A stretch of 64,000 nt of DNA, taken from positions 1 through 64,000 of the IMG/VR virus record IMGVR_UViG_3300040801_001572, one strand, 5' to 3'. This stretch comes from a virus. Position 1 is the first letter of the stretch; every line of letters begins with the position of its first letter. The translations under genes and the position numbers were made by a program. Below, piece after piece: positions 7,744 through 61,524 of the stretch. The notes below the pieces were generated by a model that was given only the letters and a program-made list of their open reading frames with translations, had not been told where the DNA came from and ran no database searches.

Positions 7744-7907
7744 AGTGCTATGTTGTGCAGCTGGCCGTGCAAGGAACGACCGAAGAACGAGTCGAGGCAA
7801 ACTCCGAAGCTGAAGCCAAGCAATTGGCCATCGAAGAAGCACGGCTTTCTCTTGATCACGCCAATGCCCGTGTCATCGACATTCAAGTCGAAGGAGACGA
7901 CGAATGA
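7740..7907 (+). CDS. hypothetical protein (55 aa, not in ORF track)
   Basis: GTGA/ATGA overlaps on both sides; VKCYVVQL...EGDDE. Confidence 0.65.
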   Translation: MKCYVVQLAVQGTTEERVEANSEAEAKQLAIEEARLSLDHANARVIDIQVEGDDE

Positions 7908-8125
7908 AGCGCTACTGGGACAAACCGAAGTACTTTACCTGGGAAACACGATGGTTCCTGCTCCAGATCGGAATCTCCGGTGACTGGCTGTGGTCGAACA
8001 CACAGACTGCTACTGCATTCGAGAAACGTACTCACTACTTCACGATCAGTAAAGTATCGCGTGGTGACCTCACTGCTGTGAGCGTGATCATTCTTCCAGT
8101 GAGCATCATGTTTGGCCTAGTTTAA
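7904..8125 (+). CDS. hypothetical protein
   Basis: GGAG SD, ATGA overlap. Confidence 0.65.
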   Translation: MKRYWDKPKYFTWETRWFLLQIGISGDWLWSNTQTATAFEKRTHYFTISKVSRGDLTAVSVIILPVSIMFGLV

Positions 8126-8127
8126 GG

Positions 8128-8180
8128 TTGACATCTCCATCCAACTGTCGTACACTGTGCACAGTTAGATAAGAGGACAG
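8128..8180 (+). promoter_or_regulatory. sigma70-type early promoter
   Basis: TTGACA-17-TACACT; 27 nt identical to the 3592 unit. Confidence 0.85.
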
Positions 8181-8184
8181 ACTC

Positions 8185-8787
8185 ATGCGCAACACGCTCG
8201 CTATTGAACTAATTACCAACGTGATGCAGGAGATACCTGCTGACCGTGCCCAGTCACTGCTGCAGGCCACTGTGAACTTCCTCGCTGTAGCAGAGAAAGA
8301 GAACCTTGCACATTTGCTGGTGCAGGTAGAAAGCCTGGAAGATGCATTCAGCGACATTCTCATCAACCGTGACAAGCTGCTGTCCGAGAAGGCGCCGGTG
8401 GTAGACATGCGTGGCTTCCCGCACATTGGCATGCCTGGAACCGGCAAGCATGAGCGTGTCACCGGGCTGTTCAAGACTGCTGGCATCGCTTCGCTGATCA
8501 CGAATTTCTACGACCTTGCCAGCGAGAACGACTCTACGGAGTACACCCTGGACGACTTCAACACTCGCATCGGTGATCAGCTGCGCAGTGCCGCTGAAGA
8601 TCTGGAAGACGGTGGCGGAGCGAGTTTCGATATGACTGACGTACATTTTGACGTCGAGGACGAGCTGGTACGCTCGGAACTTAACCAGGCCATGCACCGT
8701 GTTACCCACGCGATCATGATTGCCCTCCGCGAACGGGACGAAAGGAACATCCTGGACGCCCTTAACATGATGGGCGAGTCCGAATAA
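8185..8787 (+). CDS. hypothetical protein
   Basis: SD + promoter, 200 aa. Confidence 0.8.
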   Translation: MRNTLAIELITNVMQEIPADRAQSLLQATVNFLAVAEKENLAHLLVQVESLEDAFSDILINRDKLLSEKAPVVDMRGFPHIGMPGTGKHERVTGLFKTAGIASLITNFYDLASENDSTEYTLDDFNTRIGDQLRSAAEDLEDGGGASFDMTDVHFDVEDELVRSELNQAMHRVTHAIMIALRERDERNILDALNMMGESE

Positions 8788-8846: not shown

Positions 8847-9332
8847 ATGTTTGAGATTACCCAAGACCCCAAAGCTGCCGGACAACACTGGCCCGACGTT
8901 TCATACCGCGGCCACAACCTGTTCGACATCTACTGCGACGATAAAGAGATCGGAGACCTGATCAGTGATCAAGGTAACGGCCTTGACATTGACTGTCAGG
9001 AAAGCTACCTGGGTTACATTCCCGACGAGGACTGCTTCCTGTCTGGCTGGGACTGCTGGTACGACGATTCCAACGACTGCGATCACTGCTGGGGCGAAAC
9101 TGTCGACGAGGACACCGGTGAAGAGTGTACCCACTGTGATGGCAACGGTTACCTCGAAAGCGAGGACAGCGAGAACTTCAAAGGCTGCATGGCCAAGTTC
9201 GTGATAGACGACACAGGCAAGCTTTGTGTGCTCGAGATCATCCAGACCCACGGGCGCATGGTGTACTCGGACGATGTGCTAGCAGCCATGCACACTCGAT
9301 ACCCATCGTTGGTTGACCTTCGGTTGGATTGA
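8847..9332 (+). CDS. acidic protein with DnaJ-like CxxCxG zinc finger
   Basis: CDHCWG...CTHCDGNG. Confidence 0.75.
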   Translation: MFEITQDPKAAGQHWPDVSYRGHNLFDIYCDDKEIGDLISDQGNGLDIDCQESYLGYIPDEDCFLSGWDCWYDDSNDCDHCWGETVDEDTGEECTHCDGNGYLESEDSENFKGCMAKFVIDDTGKLCVLEIIQTHGRMVYSDDVLAAMHTRYPSLVDLRLD

Positions 9333-9367
9333 TCGTATACTGTGTGGGTTAGTTAGGACAACGGAGC
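9313..9367 (+). promoter_or_regulatory. sigma70-type early promoter
   Basis: TTGACC-17-TATACT, agttaggacaacggag. Confidence 0.75.
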
Positions 9368-9373
9368 AACACA

Positions 9374-9703
9374 ATGAACTACCTTCCTGTTAATGTATAC
9401 GGTGTACAGTCGGACAACACCTTTCTGTGCAGCGACAGCTCAAACTGTGGTGTGACCCTTACCCATCGTGACAAGCTGGTCGTGCCGCATGTCAGGGGCC
9501 AGTACACGGAGCAAGACGTCAAGGAACGTGGCATGGTCATCCTGGAACTGATGGAACCTGCTTTCCCTGGTTGCCCTCCGCGCTTCAAGCCTCAGGGCAT
9601 CGCAGGCCACGCAATGTTTGGTGGTCGCTACGTGATGGGTGACAGCCGGTTCACTGAGGCGTACAGTAAGCAGCCTGTCCAGGTACACGATCGGGTGGAG
9701 TAA
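9374..9703 (+). CDS. hypothetical protein
   Basis: SD + promoter; MFGG...DSRF...HDR motif. Confidence 0.75.
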   Translation: MNYLPVNVYGVQSDNTFLCSDSSNCGVTLTHRDKLVVPHVRGQYTEQDVKERGMVILELMEPAFPGCPPRFKPQGIAGHAMFGGRYVMGDSRFTEAYSKQPVQVHDRVE

Positions 9704-53760: not shown

Positions 53761-54196
53761 GTGAGTTTTATACGGGTATCTCAAGACGGGTATGATCAAG
53801 TTGAGGTTGACCCTGCACATCGGCACACCATAAAAAAATCTTTAGAAGGATGGGTCGATTTCGATAGTTGTTTTAGATCAGGAGTAATCGAAGGCGAAAT
53901 TTGTCCTTACGAAGTCGGTGTTGGTGTTCCTCCAGCGATCACAGGCAATTTCGCACAAGAAAAGGAATACGTAAGGGAAGTTCGGTCATTTCGCGAATTG
54001 CAAGGCGAATGTGCCCCCCAGAAGCAATCATGCAACAGGCTCCCCTAAGATATACGACGAAGATATTTTAATTGTCGAGACTTACTACGACCAAGACGAA
54101 AACAATTTCGGCATATTCGTACACTATGACAATGATAAGCTAAAAGAATATTGGGTATACGACGTTTGTTCATCTACAAAATCACAAATCTGGTAA
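53761..54196 (+). other. small gene split across two frames by a structured insertion
   Basis: strong SD at 53749; second half (..IYDEDILIVETYY..EYWVY) in the +1 frame has no SD. Confidence 0.45.
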
Positions 54197-54978
54197 ACAA
54201 GAAAATTTACATCGGATACGACACTAGCAGTACCGACGAGTGTTTACGCTGGAAGTATCACTTAATTGCATACAAAAGAAAGAATGCAAAAAAGCGACTT
54301 TATCTAGCAATGAAAAAATACGGCGCTGAGAAATTTTGTCACGAAGTTCTCGATACTGCCGAATCACTCGACGAGCTTAAAGAAAAAGAGATACTGTACA
54401 TCAGTATATTAGAGTCTACCGATCGAAGCGTCGGCTATAACGATACACGCGGCGGCGACGGAGGTGACACATTTATATATAAGTCCGAAGACGAGCTTAA
54501 CCTCATCAAAGAAAGGATGAGTATTTCAGCAAAAACAAGATGGGAGAATATCTCAGACAGCGAAAAAGAGCTTATATTAAAGAATTTTATCGGGTCTAAA
54601 TGGAAGAACGTGTCTGTGCAAGATAGAAAAAGAAAAATGCAACACCTCTACACCAGCGAAGTTAGCAGCAAGAAGTCGCAGACACTGAAGAAATTTTACG
54701 CAGGCTGCTCTGATCGAGGAGCTGAAAAAGGGCGAGCCATTAAAGAGTGGCAAAACAAGAACAAAAACATCGTTAGAAAACAGAATAAAATTGCAGCGGA
54801 AAAAGCAGCAGAAAAGAAAAGACAAAGAATAAAAGCAATCAGCCCTTTGGGAGAAACACTTTTCTTTAACTCAAAGAAAGAGTTCAAAGAAAAACACGGG
54901 TATATCCTAGATAGAATAATTAAAAAGACAGCTAATAATAGCAGTCACAACGGATGGAGAGCATGGGAAATTGAGTGA
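54151..54978 (+). CDS. GIY-YIG homing endonuclease (Seg-like; start uncertain)
   Basis: FIYKITN..N.KIYIG; E..YI; GYN...GG.GG. Confidence 0.85.
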   Translation: MGIRRLFIYKITNLVNKKIYIGYDTSSTDECLRWKYHLIAYKRKNAKKRLYLAMKKYGAEKFCHEVLDTAESLDELKEKEILYISILESTDRSVGYNDTRGGDGGDTFIYKSEDELNLIKERMSISAKTRWENISDSEKELILKNFIGSKWKNVSVQDRKRKMQHLYTSEVSSKKSQTLKKFYAGCSDRGAEKGRAIKEWQNKNKNIVRKQNKIAAEKAAEKKRQRIKAISPLGETLFFNSKKEFKEKHGYILDRIIKKTANNSSHNGWRAWEIE

Positions 54979-55987
54979 CCAACTATTTAAACGGTTAGCT
55001 GCGTTTACAGATATCCACTTTGGAAATAAACACAACAGCAGACTACACAATGCAGATTGTGAAGAGTTTGTGTTGTGGTTTATTGACGAAGCTAAAAAGA
55101 GAAATTGTGATACTTGCATCTTCTTAGGAGACTGGCACCATCACAGAGCAGCAGTTAATGTTTCCACAATGAATTACACTGTGAGTAACATCGGCTTTTT
55201 AAACGATGCTTTCGAGAAAGTATACATCATTACCGGCAACCACGACCTGTTTTACAGAGAAAAACGAGAGATCCATTCCTTAGTAATGGGTAAGAACTTT
55301 GAGAATGTGGTTCTAGTCGACGAACCTGTAATAGATGGTGACGTTGCTATTGTGCCATGGCTAATTGAAGACGAATGGAAGAAAGTCAAAAAGATTAAGA
55401 CCAAGTACATGTTCGGTCACTTTGAGATCCCCGGGTTCAAAATGAACGCACAGATTGAGATGCCAGACCATGGTGCAATCAACAAGCGTCATTTCGAGCA
55501 TCAGGACTTAGTGTTCAGTGGACACTTTCACAAAAGACAAAACGATGGGCACATTCACTACATTGGCAATCCGTTCGGACACAACTTTGCAGATGCATGG
55601 GACTTTAATCGTGGGGCAATGTTCTTGGAATGGGACAAAGAACCAGAGTATGTGAATTATCCGCATGGTCCTAGATACATTACTTGTTATCTTAGCGAAC
55701 TGCTTGACAACACCGAAGATTATCTTAAGCCAAAGACATATGTCCGTGTGACACTGGACTCAAATATCTCTTACGAAGAAATTAACTTCTTGAGAGAAAC
55801 ACTAATCGAAAACTATGAGATTCGAGATTTAAAACTAATATACGATCGCACTGTTGAAGAAGATATTGAATTCGAGGGTGAGATCACTTTCCAGACTGTT
55901 GATCAGATTGTAACCGAACAATTGAGCAACCTGGACCTAGGAACGTACGACCGTAAAAAACTTGTTGAGATTTACAATAACCTATAA
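54971..55987 (+). CDS. recombination nuclease subunit (gp47/Mre11/SbcD-like)
   Basis: DIH, GD, GNHD, GHFH metallophosphoesterase motifs. Confidence 0.92.
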   Translation: MSDQLFKRLAAFTDIHFGNKHNSRLHNADCEEFVLWFIDEAKKRNCDTCIFLGDWHHHRAAVNVSTMNYTVSNIGFLNDAFEKVYIITGNHDLFYREKREIHSLVMGKNFENVVLVDEPVIDGDVAIVPWLIEDEWKKVKKIKTKYMFGHFEIPGFKMNAQIEMPDHGAINKRHFEHQDLVFSGHFHKRQNDGHIHYIGNPFGHNFADAWDFNRGAMFLEWDKEPEYVNYPHGPRYITCYLSELLDNTEDYLKPKTYVRVTLDSNISYEEINFLRETLIENYEIRDLKLIYDRTVEEDIEFEGEITFQTVDQIVTEQLSNLDLGTYDRKKLVEIYNNL

Positions 55988-55989
55988 AC

Positions 55990-57759
55990 ATGATTAATCT
56001 TAAAAACGTCACTATCAAAAATTTCATGTCTGTGGGCAATGTGTCTCAGGCAATTAGCTTTTCCGAAAACGAACTTGTGCTAGTGCTAGGTGAGAATCTA
56101 GACCTAGGCGGCAATGACAGCAGGAACGGTGTAGGTAAGAGTACTGCACTTAATGCGCTCAGTTACGCACTGTACGGAGAGGCACTTGTAAAGATCAAGC
56201 GAGATAACTTGATTAACAAGGTTAACGGGAAAGGCATGATGGTTACGCTGGACTTCGAAAAAGACGGAGTAACCTATCGTATCGAACGCGGACGCAAGCC
56301 TAACATATTCAAGTTCATTGTGAACGGGCACGAGATTGAGGATGAGACTGACGAAGCACAAGGCGACAGTCGTCTCACTCAGGAAGAAGTCGAAAGAGTC
56401 ATGGGCATCTCCCATGACATGTTCAAGCAGATTGTGGCACTTAACACATACAGCGAACCGTTTCTTAGCTTACGTGCCAACGATCAAAGATCAATCATTG
56501 AGCAGCTACTAGGCATCACCAAGTTGTCAGAAAAAGCCGAAGTGCTAAAGACACAGCTCAAGGAGGTTAGAGATGCCATTAAGGAAGAGGAGTTCCGGGT
56601 TAAAGCGACCCAGGAGGCGAATAAAAAGATTGAGGAGAACATTAAGACGCTTACGCTCCGTTCCCAAGCGTGGGAGAAAACCAAAACTAACACGATTAAA
56701 GACTACGAAGACAGCCTCCTCGCCCTCGACGAAGTCGACATCGAAAAAGAGCTTGAGACGCATAAAGAGAATAAGAAGGCTCGGGAGTCGATAAGAGAGC
56801 GCGACAAACTGGAACGTGAGATTAAATCTCTAACTCGCGAAATCAAGCTGCACAAGAACAGTTTAGAGCAAGTCGAAAAGAACATACACAGAACTTCTGA
56901 AGGCAAAGAGTGTCCTACTTGTCACCAAGAAATGGACAAAGAAACACACGAAAGGGTCCATGCAGAGTACGAAGCACAGGCACTGCAAGCTCGTGATAAA
57001 ATTGCCGAAAAGCAGCAAGAATTAGATGAGCTAGAAGCAGTGTTGTCGTCTACTCCTGACGTAAACGAAGAAGACACCTTTTATAGCTTTGTGGAAGATG
57101 CATATAACCACAGATCCACAATGCAAGAGCTTGCGAACAATCTTGCACGTGAGCAAAGTTCGGAAAATCCGTACACTGAACAGATCGAAAGCTTACAGAC
57201 ATCTGGTATTCAGCAGGTTGATTACTCGTACATTAACGAAATGACCAGCTTGCGTGATCACCAAGAGTTTCTGCTCAGTCTACTAATCAACAAAGACAGT
57301 TTTATTCGCAAGAAAATTATTGATCAGAATCTGCTGTATCTAAACAACAGACTGTCTCACTACTTAGGCAAGTTAGGTTTGCCCCACGAAGTTAAGTTTA
57401 AGTCAGATCTCGAAGTCGAAATCACACAATACGGCAGAGACTTTGACTTTGACAACCTCAGCCGAGGTGAACGCACACGACTAATACTAAGCCTCAGCTT
57501 TGCTTTCCGTGATGTTTACGAAAGCTTAAACACCAAGATCAATCTGCTGTTCATTGACGAACTAATAGATAGTGGTCTTGACACAGCTGGTGTAGAAAAC
57601 GCACTAGCAGTATTCAAAGGTATGACAAGGGAACAAAGAAGAAACATCTTCTTGATCAGTCATCGTGACGAACTCATTGGACGAGTTACTAGCGTATTAA
57701 AAGTGATCAAAGAAGGGGGCTTTACATCCTTTGATAGTACCGACACAAACTTAATATAA
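55990..57759 (+). CDS. recombination ATPase subunit (gp46/Rad50/SbcC-like)
   Basis: NGVGKST, Zn hook CPTC, LSRGE signature, FIDE. Confidence 0.93.
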   Translation: MINLKNVTIKNFMSVGNVSQAISFSENELVLVLGENLDLGGNDSRNGVGKSTALNALSYALYGEALVKIKRDNLINKVNGKGMMVTLDFEKDGVTYRIERGRKPNIFKFIVNGHEIEDETDEAQGDSRLTQEEVERVMGISHDMFKQIVALNTYSEPFLSLRANDQRSIIEQLLGITKLSEKAEVLKTQLKEVRDAIKEEEFRVKATQEANKKIEENIKTLTLRSQAWEKTKTNTIKDYEDSLLALDEVDIEKELETHKENKKARESIRERDKLEREIKSLTREIKLHKNSLEQVEKNIHRTSEGKECPTCHQEMDKETHERVHAEYEAQALQARDKIAEKQQELDELEAVLSSTPDVNEEDTFYSFVEDAYNHRSTMQELANNLAREQSSENPYTEQIESLQTSGIQQVDYSYINEMTSLRDHQEFLLSLLINKDSFIRKKIIDQNLLYLNNRLSHYLGKLGLPHEVKFKSDLEVEITQYGRDFDFDNLSRGERTRLILSLSFAFRDVYESLNTKINLLFIDELIDSGLDTAGVENALAVFKGMTREQRRNIFLISHRDELIGRVTSVLKVIKEGGFTSFDSTDTNLI

Positions 57760-57777: not shown

Positions 57778-58443
57778 ATGAAATTTACCCCGAGCTACCT
57801 CTGCAAGGAGGACACACTTAAGGTTTTACCGGGATCCCTTTATAGAGAAGTGCTGTATAAGCAGCAAGAGCTCTACTACAACAACCTCAGTAATCTAAAT
57901 TTCAAACAGATACGTTTTGCAAATTTAGATCCTTCTGAAGTTCCTCCGACAGATTCTATCGACTATATACGTGACTGGATGGGCTGTGTTCCTGTCGGTG
58001 TTCTGCCTATCTACGGTAGACACGGCGACGATGGTATTACACCAGACGGCACAGGCATCGAAACAAAGACACTTATGATTGACGAAGACAAATGGGAACG
58101 CGGCCCAAGAGGTGGTATTCGCTCAAAAAGCAAAGGTAATTGCAACATGGGCAGCTACTACAACATCGGCTACGGAAACGACCATGGTATTTTTGACACA
58201 GAACATAAAGTCAAAGACACCTATGTGATTATCATTTCCCGTGCATTAGATCAAGTAGTGTCGGTGTTCTACTTAGATCCAGATGCTGTAAGAGAACGCC
58301 TCAACAATTACGGCGGTAGTTGCAAAAAGATCTATCTACGTCACATTTTAAACGATGGTATTGACGTTAGCGGACAAGGCGACGTAATGGAAGCGATTGG
58401 TTGGGAACGATATCAACAGTTTTTAGACAGCTATATCGTTTAA
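57778..58443 (+). CDS. hypothetical protein, possible PD-(D/E)xK nuclease
   Basis: GDDG..PDG.GIETK. Confidence 0.6.
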   Translation: MKFTPSYLCKEDTLKVLPGSLYREVLYKQQELYYNNLSNLNFKQIRFANLDPSEVPPTDSIDYIRDWMGCVPVGVLPIYGRHGDDGITPDGTGIETKTLMIDEDKWERGPRGGIRSKSKGNCNMGSYYNIGYGNDHGIFDTEHKVKDTYVIIISRALDQVVSVFYLDPDAVRERLNNYGGSCKKIYLRHILNDGIDVSGQGDVMEAIGWERYQQFLDSYIV

Positions 58444-58859
58444 TCTAGTCGCGCCTTTTCAGGGCACTTTCCGGTCTTCCCAAGGAACTCATTGTAATAG
58501 CGTCTGCTTGGTATAGCATCTTCCATTACAATGCGTTTGGTTTCGCCGTAGCTAAGTTCCCACTTGGTATCATACAATTCCAGTATAGTAAAGGTAAACT
58601 TGTCTTTGCCTAATTTTTCTATATCTGCGTTTAGCTCTTTAGATGAGCCTGTGTATGTGCGCCAATCTGACTCTTTAGTGCTGCGGCGGCGGTTCTTTCG
58701 GCCTTTGAGCGGAGGCTTAGAGACTTTGAAATGCAAGAGTTTTTGCCCTATGTATTTGCGGCCATCTACAGTGTTTACTATCTCGTAAACAAAGCCTAGA
58801 TGGTCAGCAGGATCGAATTCGGGGCCGGACCAATGTCCGTAATCAGTTTTTTCGCTCAT
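58440..58859 (-). CDS. compact GIY-YIG nuclease-domain protein
   Basis: GFVYEI.N..DGRKYIG; Y.GSS; E; YYN. Confidence 0.85.
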   Translation of the reverse strand: MSEKTDYGHWSGPEFDPADHLGFVYEIVNTVDGRKYIGQKLLHFKVSKPPLKGRKNRRRSTKESDWRTYTGSSKELNADIEKLGKDKFTFTILELYDTKWELSYGETKRIVMEDAIPSRRYYNEFLGKTGKCPEKARLD

Positions 58860-58951
58860 TTTAAAACAGCTTGCATAATTATGTATGCTGTTATTTACCA
58901 GGCAAAAAGTTTCGGTTGACTGCCAAATGGTAAAGACATTATACTTTTATA

Positions 58952-59446
58952 TAGAAGCTTGTGAGACTATCGCGACTCGCAAGTCGAAAATCGCAGCGTT
59001 AGATTACTTCGCAAAGCCCCCGCTGACAATGCTAGGCGGGAATTGGTACTCAGCATTAAATTAGGCTATCTGACTCACTACAATCGGCAATATCGCACAG
59101 CACTCGGCCATTTGTGCTGTGTCCTATTGAGACTGCCAGCGCGAGCTGTTGCCGTCGGACACTTAGGAGCCGAATCTCAATAACGATTGTGCTCTACGCC
59201 TCCGATATCGGAGAATAAATCGAATGCAGATATGCAGCGTAACACAGTCCGAAATACATTACTTCACTATGGTGTATTTTGGTTCCGTTGTTGGCGGATC
59301 GATGGTACCGGGCAACCGCCTACTAGCCATGCGTTAGTACTTTGCTGTGAGTCGCAAGGATCGATTGTAGTGAAAGACCCAGATGGCCTCAACCAAGGCA
59401 CTGACTGTTAACTAGAAGAAGATTACCCTCTGGGTGATCTTTTTTT
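58952..59446 (+). ncRNA. putative large structured non-coding RNA (family unrecognised)
   Basis: TTGACT-18-TATACT promoter at 58916; perfect 12-bp long-range helix 59075-59086/59362-59373; many hairpins; terminator. Confidence 0.7.
59417..59446 (+). terminator. intrinsic terminator
   Basis: aagattaccc-tct-gggtgatctt + T run. Confidence 0.8.
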
Positions 59447-59695
59447 AGTGGCCCTGAAAAGGGCTAGAGTCATGACCGATAAATCAGTCATTCCTCTTTT
59501 GTTGACAGACAATTCCTAACCAATCATATTCAGTTCGTCTGCTCAAGCAGCCGTATTTAAACAGAACCAGAATAAGATATGGTAGATAAACCAACGAGCT
59601 TGCGAGTTAGGGATAGATACCATATCTTCGAGAGCAGCTTCGCTGCCTCGATTAACTATTAGGGAGTAACAGTTATTTCTAAACAATCTCGAGTT

Positions 59696-59968
59696 ATGCT
59701 AGGGCAAGTTCTGAGTATTGCAAAGACAATAGGGTACTCAGATACAATTCAACGTTTCGTAATTAATGAACTTCGCAAAGATCTCAGTGATGATTGTGCG
59801 AGTGTTTGTAAGAAATGTGGCAGGAAAATATATCAGGTAGTGCTACAGAGCTATGTGAATCAATTGCCAAGAAAAAAGCGCATCTGTTCCCAGTGCGCTC
59901 ATTTAAAAGATGATTTTAAACCCAACTGCACATATCAAGCAGCTTGGGATAAAAATGTCAAGGTGTAG
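59696..59968 (+). CDS. small zinc-ribbon protein
   Basis: CKKC...CSQC. Confidence 0.55.
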   Translation: MLGQVLSIAKTIGYSDTIQRFVINELRKDLSDDCASVCKKCGRKIYQVVLQSYVNQLPRKKRICSQCAHLKDDFKPNCTYQAAWDKNVKV

Positions 59969-60464: not shown

Positions 60465-60682
60465 TACATGTACTCCCTTCCGTCTCCGCTCATTTTCTGT
60501 AGTGTCTTGTTGATCATTGTGATTATCTTTTTGCGGCTGATGTGATCAATTGCCCACGCTTGATCCCAGGTCACTCCGCCTCTCATCCAGTAACATATAT
60601 CAATAATCTGCTGGGTCAGTGCATTTGTGTCTCGATCTAAATCTTTAATGAACTCGGAAATCTCTTCAGGACTTCTGGTCAT
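60464..60682 (-). CDS. baseplate hub assembly protein (gp51-like)
   Basis: WMRGGVT...A; follows the gp26-like gene. Confidence 0.65.
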   Translation of the reverse strand: MTRSPEEISEFIKDLDRDTNALTQQIIDICYWMRGGVTWDQAWAIDHISRKKIITMINKTLQKMSGDGREYM

Positions 60683-61524
60683 TAAGACCCCATAAAAAAA
60701 TTTACAGGATTAAAGTCCACTGTAGATTTCCACTTGTGCTCGCACTTTTCACATGTAGCATCAAAATCTTTGCGCACACCGATTGAATTAATGCTAGAAA
60801 TAAGATTGTCTACAGCTTTGTAGGTTTTCTTATCGAGGTTAGCCATATATTCGTCTATGTGTGCTCGTTCTGTTACTTCCACTCCGTCTGGTGTAACAAT
60901 TTTCTGAATGCTGTTGATTAACAGCTCGATGTTTGTTTCTGATATCTTTTGATAGCTCTTAGAGAACAGAGCAAGTCTAGTGTCTTCGTCTATGTTTTCT
61001 TTTGCAAACACTTTGCTGGCTTTGATCTGTTCAAACTGAATTTTAAGGGCACTTACGCCGTCTTTATACGTGTACGGTCTTACGTATATGACTACCCCGC
61101 TCTCTGTGTGAACTGTGTATTCTGGGTCTAAATGATCCATTTGTGCCAAGTTTACACTGAGGTCAACGGTGTAAGTATTTTCGTGCTGACAGTTCGGACA
61201 AGGAGTTTTGATTTCCAAATCCTCTGCATATGTAGCGTGTCGAATACCAATCATAATAGCATCAACGTCGTTTGCCAGTAGCTGCTTTGGGTCTTTGATG
61301 CTAGGTGCACAGCTTTTGATAATATCTAGGATAGCATCGCCGTTAAGTAGTGCATCTGGATTTTTAGTGATCATTTCATCACGTGCTGTCATTGGCATGA
61401 TGCCAATTTCGCCTGAATCATTGAAGTCCACTACATCCGAGCCATAGTAGTTTGTGCCACTAGGCAAGCCGATGTAGATCTTTGTTGTCCTGAAATACTG
61501 TTGTAGCGGATTAGCTTCAGACAT
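60682..61524 (-). CDS. baseplate hub assembly protein (gp26-like)
   Basis: LPS...PMTA.DE...PDALLNG; IR.ATY; CPNC and CEKC. Confidence 0.8.
   Translation of the reverse strand: MSEANPLQQYFRTTKIYIGLPSGTNYYGSDVVDFNDSGEIGIMPMTARDEMITKNPDALLNGDAILDIIKSCAPSIKDPKQLLANDVDAIMIGIRHATYAEDLEIKTPCPNCQHENTYTVDLSVNLAQMDHLDPEYTVHTESGVVIYVRPYTYKDGVSALKIQFEQIKASKVFAKENIDEDTRLALFSKSYQKISETNIELLINSIQKIVTPDGVEVTERAHIDEYMANLDKKTYKAVDNLISSINSIGVRKDFDATCEKCEHKWKSTVDFNPVNFFMGS

Follow-up and report, generated by a model that had tools for sequence, protein, structure and literature searches.

A large pseudoknotted RNA beside a compact GIY-YIG nuclease gene in a T4-like giant phage contig

Does a large structured RNA that is encoded next to a minimal nuclease gene serve this nuclease, or does it have a role of its own? 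The question arises from a viral DNA stretch of 64,000 nucleotides (nt), IMGVR_UViG_3300040801_001572, i.e., the first 64 kb of a 114,654-nt IMG/VR virus record with an estimated completeness of about 31% (hereafter the window). Here, a non-coding RNA of about 495 nt lies back to back with the gene of a 139-amino-acid (aa) GIY-YIG protein. An initial annotation, made from the sequence alone, had suggested a ribonucleoprotein (RNP) in which the RNA supplies specificity to the nuclease, or else an origin-associated RNA. We found a covarying RNA gene with relatives in many phage contigs. With about even confidence, we favour a structural RNA that would act in trans, with the nuclease as its ancestral syntenic neighbour and not as an obligate partner or guided enzyme.

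The RNA gene and its covarying fold

The RNA lies in a stretch poor in open reading frames (ORFs). Frames between 58860 and 59695 are at most 74 aa long, and after the GIY-YIG ORF a credible ORF does not begin until 59696, in agreement with the promoter-to-terminator unit without a credible ORF that had been described at the outset. The unit starts at a sigma-70-type promoter and ends in an intrinsic terminator (Table 1), whose stem (59421-59439) and U-tract (59440-59446) were read by eye and not listed by a simple terminator scan. The predicted fold of the plus strand reached -179 kcal/mol compared with -143 ± 6 kcal/mol for shuffled sequences (z = -6.1, equalled by 0 of 100 shuffles); the minus strand of the region gave z = -2.0.

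A homologous RNA was found at the same place and in the same arrangement (nhmmer E = 3e-22) in a viral contig with a 76% identical gp46 (L002; the loci L082 and L098 are on this contig too). It has a promoter, TTGACA-17-TATACT (11/12 consensus matches), at the homologous position and a terminator-like hairpin. An alignment of gp46 gave 80 related loci, among which L100 and L101 carry clear homologues of the RNA. In all three relatives the RNA ends in a terminator-like hairpin followed by a U-tract, and the GC-rich hairpin after it is kept with altered stems and GNRA-like loops. No sigma-70 consensus was seen upstream of the RNA in L100 and L101. As judged from these sequences, we regard the RNA as real, i.e., strand-specific, conserved and provided with a promoter and a terminator of its own.

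The consensus fold of the four RNAs (window, L002, L100 and L101, together the window clade) contains 58 pairs, of which 27 show compensatory changes. The CCCGC/GCGGG hairpin is part of it, and the H-type pseudoknot AAUGCU/AGCAUU of the initial annotation was borne out: L101 has the compensatory AACGCU/AGCGUU, with U-A changed to C-G in both L101 and L002. The perfect pair tcactacaatcg/cgattgtagtga stood in part, since only its first 8 bp are supported by covariation (C-G to U-A in L002). In the central domain, one helix reads CGGC/GCCG, UAGC/GCUA or UGAC/GUCA and the other CCUA/UAGG, CUCA/UGAG or CCCA/UGGG. The domain encloses a clade-variable hairpin (59095-59122) and the GCGA-looped hairpin (59137-59148) that had been predicted as cagc-GCGA-gctg; compensatory changes in the relatives support the latter. 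Also the proposed ctccga/tcggag pairing recurs in all four RNAs with different stems. The long-range helix 59298-59303/59360-59365 reads AUCGAU/AUCGAU, GUCGAU/AUCGAC, AGUCAA/UUGACU and GGUCGU/ACGACU in the four members. Other proposed pairings were given up. The ggctatctg/cagatggcc pair occurs in the window and not in its relatives, and the gcacagcac/gtgctgtgt hairpin is missing from L002. The tattgaga/tctcaata pair is outcompeted by CCUA/UAGG and CGGC/GCCG, which covary in all four RNAs, and ggcgg/ccgcc by the pseudoknot pairing GUUGU/GCAAC.

Searches for known RNA families returned little. Rfam at gathering score gave one tRNA in the whole window and nothing for the RNA, and at E values up to 10 there was no credible match to it between 58700 and 59750. 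A match to alpha_tmRNA (18 bits) was rejected because it aligns unstructured columns only; moreover, ARAGORN finds no tmRNA. Neither the window RNA nor a type-1 relative (see below) matched any of 50,697 phage records with blastn. The exact pattern GGTACCGGGCAA...GCCTCAACC, which is overly specific for the window, occurred at 15 places in metagenome and genome contigs, none of them matching the RNA profile; the two that were read are chance matches. We also rejected a group I intron with a GIY-YIG endonuclease, because the upstream flank is the oppositely oriented GIY-YIG gene and no exon, and because the RNA comes with a promoter and a terminator of its own. Intron_gpI had no match in the window at E values up to 10 and none in the related locus L202 at E values up to 1.

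A wider superfamily of phage RNAs

All four RNAs of the window clade have GGUACCGGNNAACCGCC in common. A degenerate scan of viral contigs with this motif found at least 120 places, and among the places listed were 79 new loci (L179-L257) that share the extended context and covary in it. Of 14 loci tested, 13 have a match to RF01718 (Polynucleobacter-1, 141 nt) about 105 nt upstream of the core motif, with scores of 62-114 bits in the relatives at a membership threshold of 37 bits. Rfam thus lists the first third of a longer RNA, which in the relatives measures about 430 nt and ends in a terminator-like hairpin.

Mutual information on 60 related RNAs recovers many Watson-Crick helices. The helix CCGUUGN/NNAACCG, analyzed in 60 sequences including the window clade, pairs in 99.7% of the cells and has compensatory changes at two pairs (G-C/A-U/G-U and U-A/A-U/G-C/C-G/U-G). 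Because its 3' strand sits in a hairpin loop, the helix forms a pseudoknot, which the window clade shares with 56 further relatives. The covariation score of three helices counted together was reached by 0 of 500 shuffles.

Reciprocal profile searches support the homology of the window RNA to the wider family. When built from the relatives alone, the profiles gave a single hit below E = 0.1 in the 114-kb genome, namely 59286-59341 (E = 0.0017 to 0.014), and in the opposite direction the profile of the window clade matches L158 (E = 5.7e-5) and L150 (E = 0.004). RF01718 itself has no match in the window at E values up to 10 (58700-59750), nor in L100 and L101 at gathering score, nor in RNAs of the L150 type. 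Hence the superfamily comprises at least three sequence types, one of which is catalogued. For the type-2 relatives, the alignment was too ragged for a consensus fold.

The window RNA occupies the slot between the gp47-gp46 and p72/baseplate-hub genes that is characteristic of the superfamily. In L179-L257, where flanks are sufficiently long, the order gp47, gp46, variable genes, GIY-YIG, RNA, variable genes, p72 and hub is constant. Given the pseudoknot, the genomic slot and the neighbour gene, on which this assignment rests, we place the window RNA in a superfamily of pseudoknotted RNAs of about 430-500 nt predicted in PA5oct-like or T4-like giant phages.

The type-1 relatives have a further feature. 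All 73 of 73 type-1 RNAs contain two 7-nt boxes about 50 nt apart that are identical within an RNA and occur in eight variants between RNAs. In L179-L257, these twin boxes, CUC-NNAUNAN and UCU-NNAUNAN, sit about 50-110 nt 3' of the GGUACC motif, and they change even between phages with nucleases that are 80-90% identical. No complement in cis, third copy or clear covariation with the protein was found for them in the relatives. The L150-type consensus has the same duplicated-box pattern with ACAUGA. In the window clade the twin boxes are absent: L002, L100 and L101 have no repeat, and the sole repeat of the window, GGAUCGAU, has a palindromic core, AUCGAU, that takes part in a covarying helix as one of its strands. 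Where box 1 would be expected, the window clade has a segment that forms a cis helix with the hexamer preceding GGUACC. From these comparisons, the window clade departs from the catalogued form both in its 5' domain and in having no twin boxes.

The nuclease and its link to the RNA

The neighbouring protein was described initially as a compact GIY-YIG catalytic domain without DNA-binding modules, which agrees with our analysis: its 139 aa match SegE_GIY-YIG (PF19835, E = 2.9e-31) and no further domain. Its AlphaFold model (pLDDT 93) has the I-TevI catalytic domain as best PDB match (1LN0/1MK0, probability 0.96-0.99). The Arg/Lys-rich loop noted before would be a basic β-hairpin, inserted in the model at residues 43-63 of the I-TevI-like fold and lying inside the Pfam domain match. 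The family-invariant residues G22, Y25, Y36, G38, K40, W66, Y69, E106 and N123 are present. The canonical GIY-YIG active site has an Arg. In the window protein an Arg, residue 67, follows the invariant Trp (DWR); many type-1 relatives have Gln at this position. The family has no invariant Arg at all, and Lys40 is invariant. Homologues (38-50% identity) were found in 457 deposited phage records, mostly of cyanophages. In deposited genomes of cyanophages and other phages and in PHROG 447 they are widely labelled 'NAD synthetase'; fold and Pfam match say nuclease.

Are homologues of this nuclease consistently found beside a covarying RNA? They are in nearly every locus with enough upstream sequence. 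In almost every such locus, a SegE-type GIY-YIG ORF of about 142 aa lies directly upstream of the RNA on the same strand, with a spacing of about 20 nt from its stop codon. In L202, the ORF stops some 20 nt short of the RF01718 match, and in 5 of about 65 loci ORF and RNA are separated by an insert of about 0.8 kb. The GIY-YIG gene follows gp46 directly in about 60 of the 79 gp46-anchored loci. Weinberg et al. (2010, PMC2864571) had located RF01718 RNAs downstream of one gene family. This placement, i.e., on the same strand as a GOS11034/SegE-like gene and directly after it, is not found in the window, where the GIY-YIG gene adjoins the RNA on the opposite strand, upstream of the RNA promoter, and both are transcribed divergently.

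The common arrangement would fit a cis-acting 3'-untranslated region (UTR) element that controls stability or translation of the nuclease mRNA or self-cleaves, as in most relatives the RNA begins about 20 nt after the stop codon and leaves no room for a promoter. In the window, however, the RNA is on the strand opposite to the gene and has its own promoter. L101 has the RNA and no GIY-YIG gene detected on its 64.7-kb contig, and about 450 nt with several knots far exceed what known UTR elements need. We rate this as the least probable of the explanations considered.

A homing landmark is a further candidate: a free-standing, homing-type GIY-YIG gene would sit beside the RNA gene because its product cuts within this highly conserved gene, after the example of SegB, which neighbours the tRNA genes of phage T4. 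PMC13096335 names SegB as a homing endonuclease of T-even phages. Membership in the SegE family and the I-TevI-like fold are in line with this, as are the varying presence and orientation of the nuclease gene among the closest relatives, the additional HNH-like ORF beside the L100 RNA and the second GIY-YIG gene at 54151. The 139-aa protein has the catalytic domain of a SegE-type homing endonuclease; however, it has neither the separate C-terminal DNA-binding domain nor the sporadic distribution that mark homing endonucleases. The gene is nearly fixed across the lineage at a constant spacing of about 20 nt, and the family behaves as a conserved gene in hundreds of cyanophages. We consider the homing landmark unlikely.

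RNA and nuclease gene can also be found apart. The core of the RNA is intact where the GIY-YIG gene is inverted, i.e., in the window, L002 and L100. Besides L101, the loci L115, L139 and L145 probably have the RNA without a detectable adjoining GIY-YIG gene. Conversely, in the three cultured phages inspected downstream of the nuclease homologue (Melnitz, ACP17 and S-SSM7), other genes follow at once or after about 150 nt and leave no room for the RNA.

These observations bear on a nuclease-RNA particle, in which binding of the RNA would provide or adjust the target choice of the domain-poor enzyme, or hold the enzyme in check. Adjacency and co-transcription are near-universal in the relatives, the enzyme has nothing beyond its catalytic domain with the basic hairpin, and the inversion did not separate the two genes, which share one divergent promoter region; the fast-evolving twin boxes of the relatives resemble a specificity element. 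Yet the basic hairpin lies within the Pfam domain match, neither a guide-like end nor strong covariation between boxes and protein was found, and the window clade lacks the boxes altogether. Because all cases of linkage come from one syntenic slot of one phage lineage, they are not independent evidence, and the linkage could be inherited synteny. RNA-guided nucleases have a scaffold with a variable guide and keep nuclease and RNA together throughout. The window clade shows neither trait; the search for a variable guide-like segment in it gave none, and the initially proposed RNP with RNA-supplied specificity is not supported, in view of this and of the separate occurrence and divergent transcription of RNA and gene. 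A particle of this general kind seems improbable to us, to the same degree as a homing landmark. Its most specific form, an RNP in which the RNA provides the DNA recognition that the protein lacks, rearranged here into two divergent genes, is highly improbable; if true, it would be a new class of RNA-dependent nuclease.

We thus return to the trans-acting RNA. The locus would be a free-standing gene that is transcribed from its own sigma-70-type promoter to the intrinsic terminator into a non-coding RNA of about 495 nt. This RNA is a divergent member of the superfamily, and its predicted fold is a multi-helix junction that long-range helices and two pseudoknots close. Pseudoknot 2 holds out the invariant GGUACCGG loop, a likely contact surface for a partner, either protein or nucleic acid. 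The neighbouring nuclease gene, co-transcribed upstream of the RNA in most relatives, is flipped here. Neither this inversion nor the apparent absence of the nuclease gene has disrupted the RNA, and for this reason we propose that it acts in trans, independently of the nuclease and without need of being co-transcribed with it. The window clade amounts to a natural experiment: the RNA has become a gene of its own, beside a nuclease gene that is inverted or could not be detected; its 5' part can no longer be recognised as the catalogued motif, and an internal helix stands in place of the boxes. The GGUACCGG pseudoknot is untouched. Its retention amid these changes singles out the knot as functional core and argues for action in trans.

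Several points weigh against this proposal. GIY-YIG gene and RNA are co-transcribed in most relatives, and co-transcription often signals shared function in bacteria and phages. Their junction is the least disrupted of the region, with the inserts mentioned above in 5 of about 65 loci. The L101 contig covers about 18% of a genome, so the nuclease gene may be elsewhere. Among the sequencing runs that contain the stretch, no RNA run is listed, and the DNA runs come from one microbial-mat study. Finally, the partner in trans is purely inferred.

Genomic setting and comparison with known systems

Table 1. Coordinates of the RNA gene, its structural elements and neighbouring genes in the window
Feature	Position	Strand	Description
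Non-coding RNA	58950..59446	+	about 495 nt; start placed from promoter, end from U-tract
Sigma-70-type promoter	58916..58945	+	TTGACT-18-TATACT, 10/12 consensus matches
5' hairpin P1	58957..58984	+	5/8 pairs changed on both sides between window and L002
Hairpin CCCGC/GCGGG with pseudoknot 1	59019..59057	+	loop 59028-59033 pairs with 59052-59057
Long-range closing helix UCACUACA/UGUAGUGA	59075..59082 with 59366-59373	+	within perfect 12-nt inverted repeat
Central domain	59085..59172	+	helices 59085-59088/59169-59172 and 59123-59126/59164-59167
Hairpin CUCCG/CGGAG	59200..59213	+	stem differs in all four RNAs, pairing kept
Pseudoknot 2	59285..59320	+	CCGUUGU 59285-59291 pairs with GCAACCG 59312-59318
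Long-range helix	59298..59365	+	hexamer 59298-59303 directly 5' of GGUACC pairs with 59360-59365
Invariant loop GGUACCGG	59304-59311	+	presented by pseudoknot 2
Intrinsic terminator	59421..59446	+	8-bp stem, loop UCU and seven U; read directly from sequence
GC-rich hairpin	59450..59465	+	GAAA-type loop, directly after U-tract; may belong to unit
Minimal GIY-YIG nuclease gene	58440..58859	-	139 aa, SegE type; divergent from RNA
Second, longer GIY-YIG gene	54151-54978		275 aa; PHROG homing endonuclease families; directly upstream of gp47
SbcD/gp47-like gene	54971-55987
SbcC/gp46-like gene	55990-57759
Baseplate-hub gene	60682-61524	-

The genes around the RNA indicate a T4-like giant phage (Table 1), and Pseudomonas phage PA5oct is the nearest cultured relative by gp46 (56% identity). 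In the syntenic gap of PA5oct (L099, 75.7-77.2 kb), neither nuclease nor RNA was detected, and the profiles match nothing there; the gap holds four tiny annotated ORFs and about 660 gene-free nt. None of the four published non-coding RNAs of PA5oct lies within it.

Since the RNA adjoins gp46 and gp47, genes of recombination and replication, and lies where transcription units meet, its transcript might form a primer or R-loop at a replication origin; an origin-associated RNA had been the second suggestion of the initial annotation. RNA II has such a primer role for ColE1. A run-on primer needs neither conserved pseudoknots nor an intrinsic terminator, however. Moreover, GC and AT skew follow gene orientation only and give no separate signal, and the window clade showed neither an initiator gene nor an iteron array. 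An RNA-primed origin is thus very unlikely in our view.

The surroundings of the RNA vary. In the four members of the window clade, the stretch from gp46 to the RNA is a swap zone, with an orphan 221-aa ORF in the window, a 341-aa ORF in L002 and an unrelated 174-aa ORF (7789-8313, plus strand) in L101. L100 has two extra ORFs and a 238-aa ORF (8936-9652, minus strand) with a His/Cys pattern that looks HNH-like by eye. No close relatives of the 221- and 168-aa neighbour proteins of the window were found in the viral contigs searched. The gp47-gp46 pair has nuclease genes on both sides. The GIY-YIG gene and the RNA are flanked by a perfect 12-nt inverted repeat, CCTTTTCAGGGC/GCCCTGAAAAGG, at 58454-58465 and 59451-59462, which has these two copies only in the 64 kb (0.27 expected at up to two mismatches). 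Its left arm lies within the last codons of the nuclease gene, and its right arm is the post-terminator hairpin, which is found in the relatives with other stems.

To our knowledge, large, multiply knotted and deeply conserved RNAs are rare. Those whose structures have been solved proved to be ribozymes, scaffolds or cages. The present family is common in uncultured giant phages, and the part catalogued is a 141-nt orphan motif. The sigma-70-type promoter would ease laboratory expression of the window version for structure and binding work.

GOLLD, ROOL and OLE are large ornate RNAs of bacteria and phages with functions that are at most partly known. The window RNA resembles them in size class, in its many helices and pseudoknots and in its phage association; it has no Rfam match to any of them, however, no neighbouring tRNA cluster and a different genomic setting. 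The OMEGA RNAs of IscB/TnpB (HEARO) share with our locus a large structured RNA beside a small nuclease gene. Here, in contrast, the nuclease has a GIY-YIG fold, transposon ends and a variable guide at the RNA end are missing, the RNA persists without the nuclease, and there is no HEARO match. With I-TevI and the T4 Seg endonucleases, the 139-aa protein shares the catalytic fold and the GIY-YIG motifs. It differs from them in having no linker or DNA-binding domain, in its basic β-hairpin insert and in not being intron-borne.

Also close to the window RNA is the Polynucleobacter-1 motif (RF01718, PMC2864571), which is part of RNAs of this phage lineage that have the core motif in common with the window and adjoin the same gene family. 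In our own reading, the central domain of the window RNA has a similar layout, with an outer helix around two hairpins followed by a further hairpin. In contrast to Polynucleobacter-1, the window RNA has its own promoter, diverges from the gene and does not match RF01718, a model that covers 141 nt of RNAs of 430-500 nt. From the twin-box, extended Polynucleobacter-1 RNAs, the window clade differs in having no identical boxes, a different 5' domain and an inverted or not detectable nuclease gene, whereas the genomic slot, the neighbour gene family and the GGUACCGG pseudoknot are common to both.

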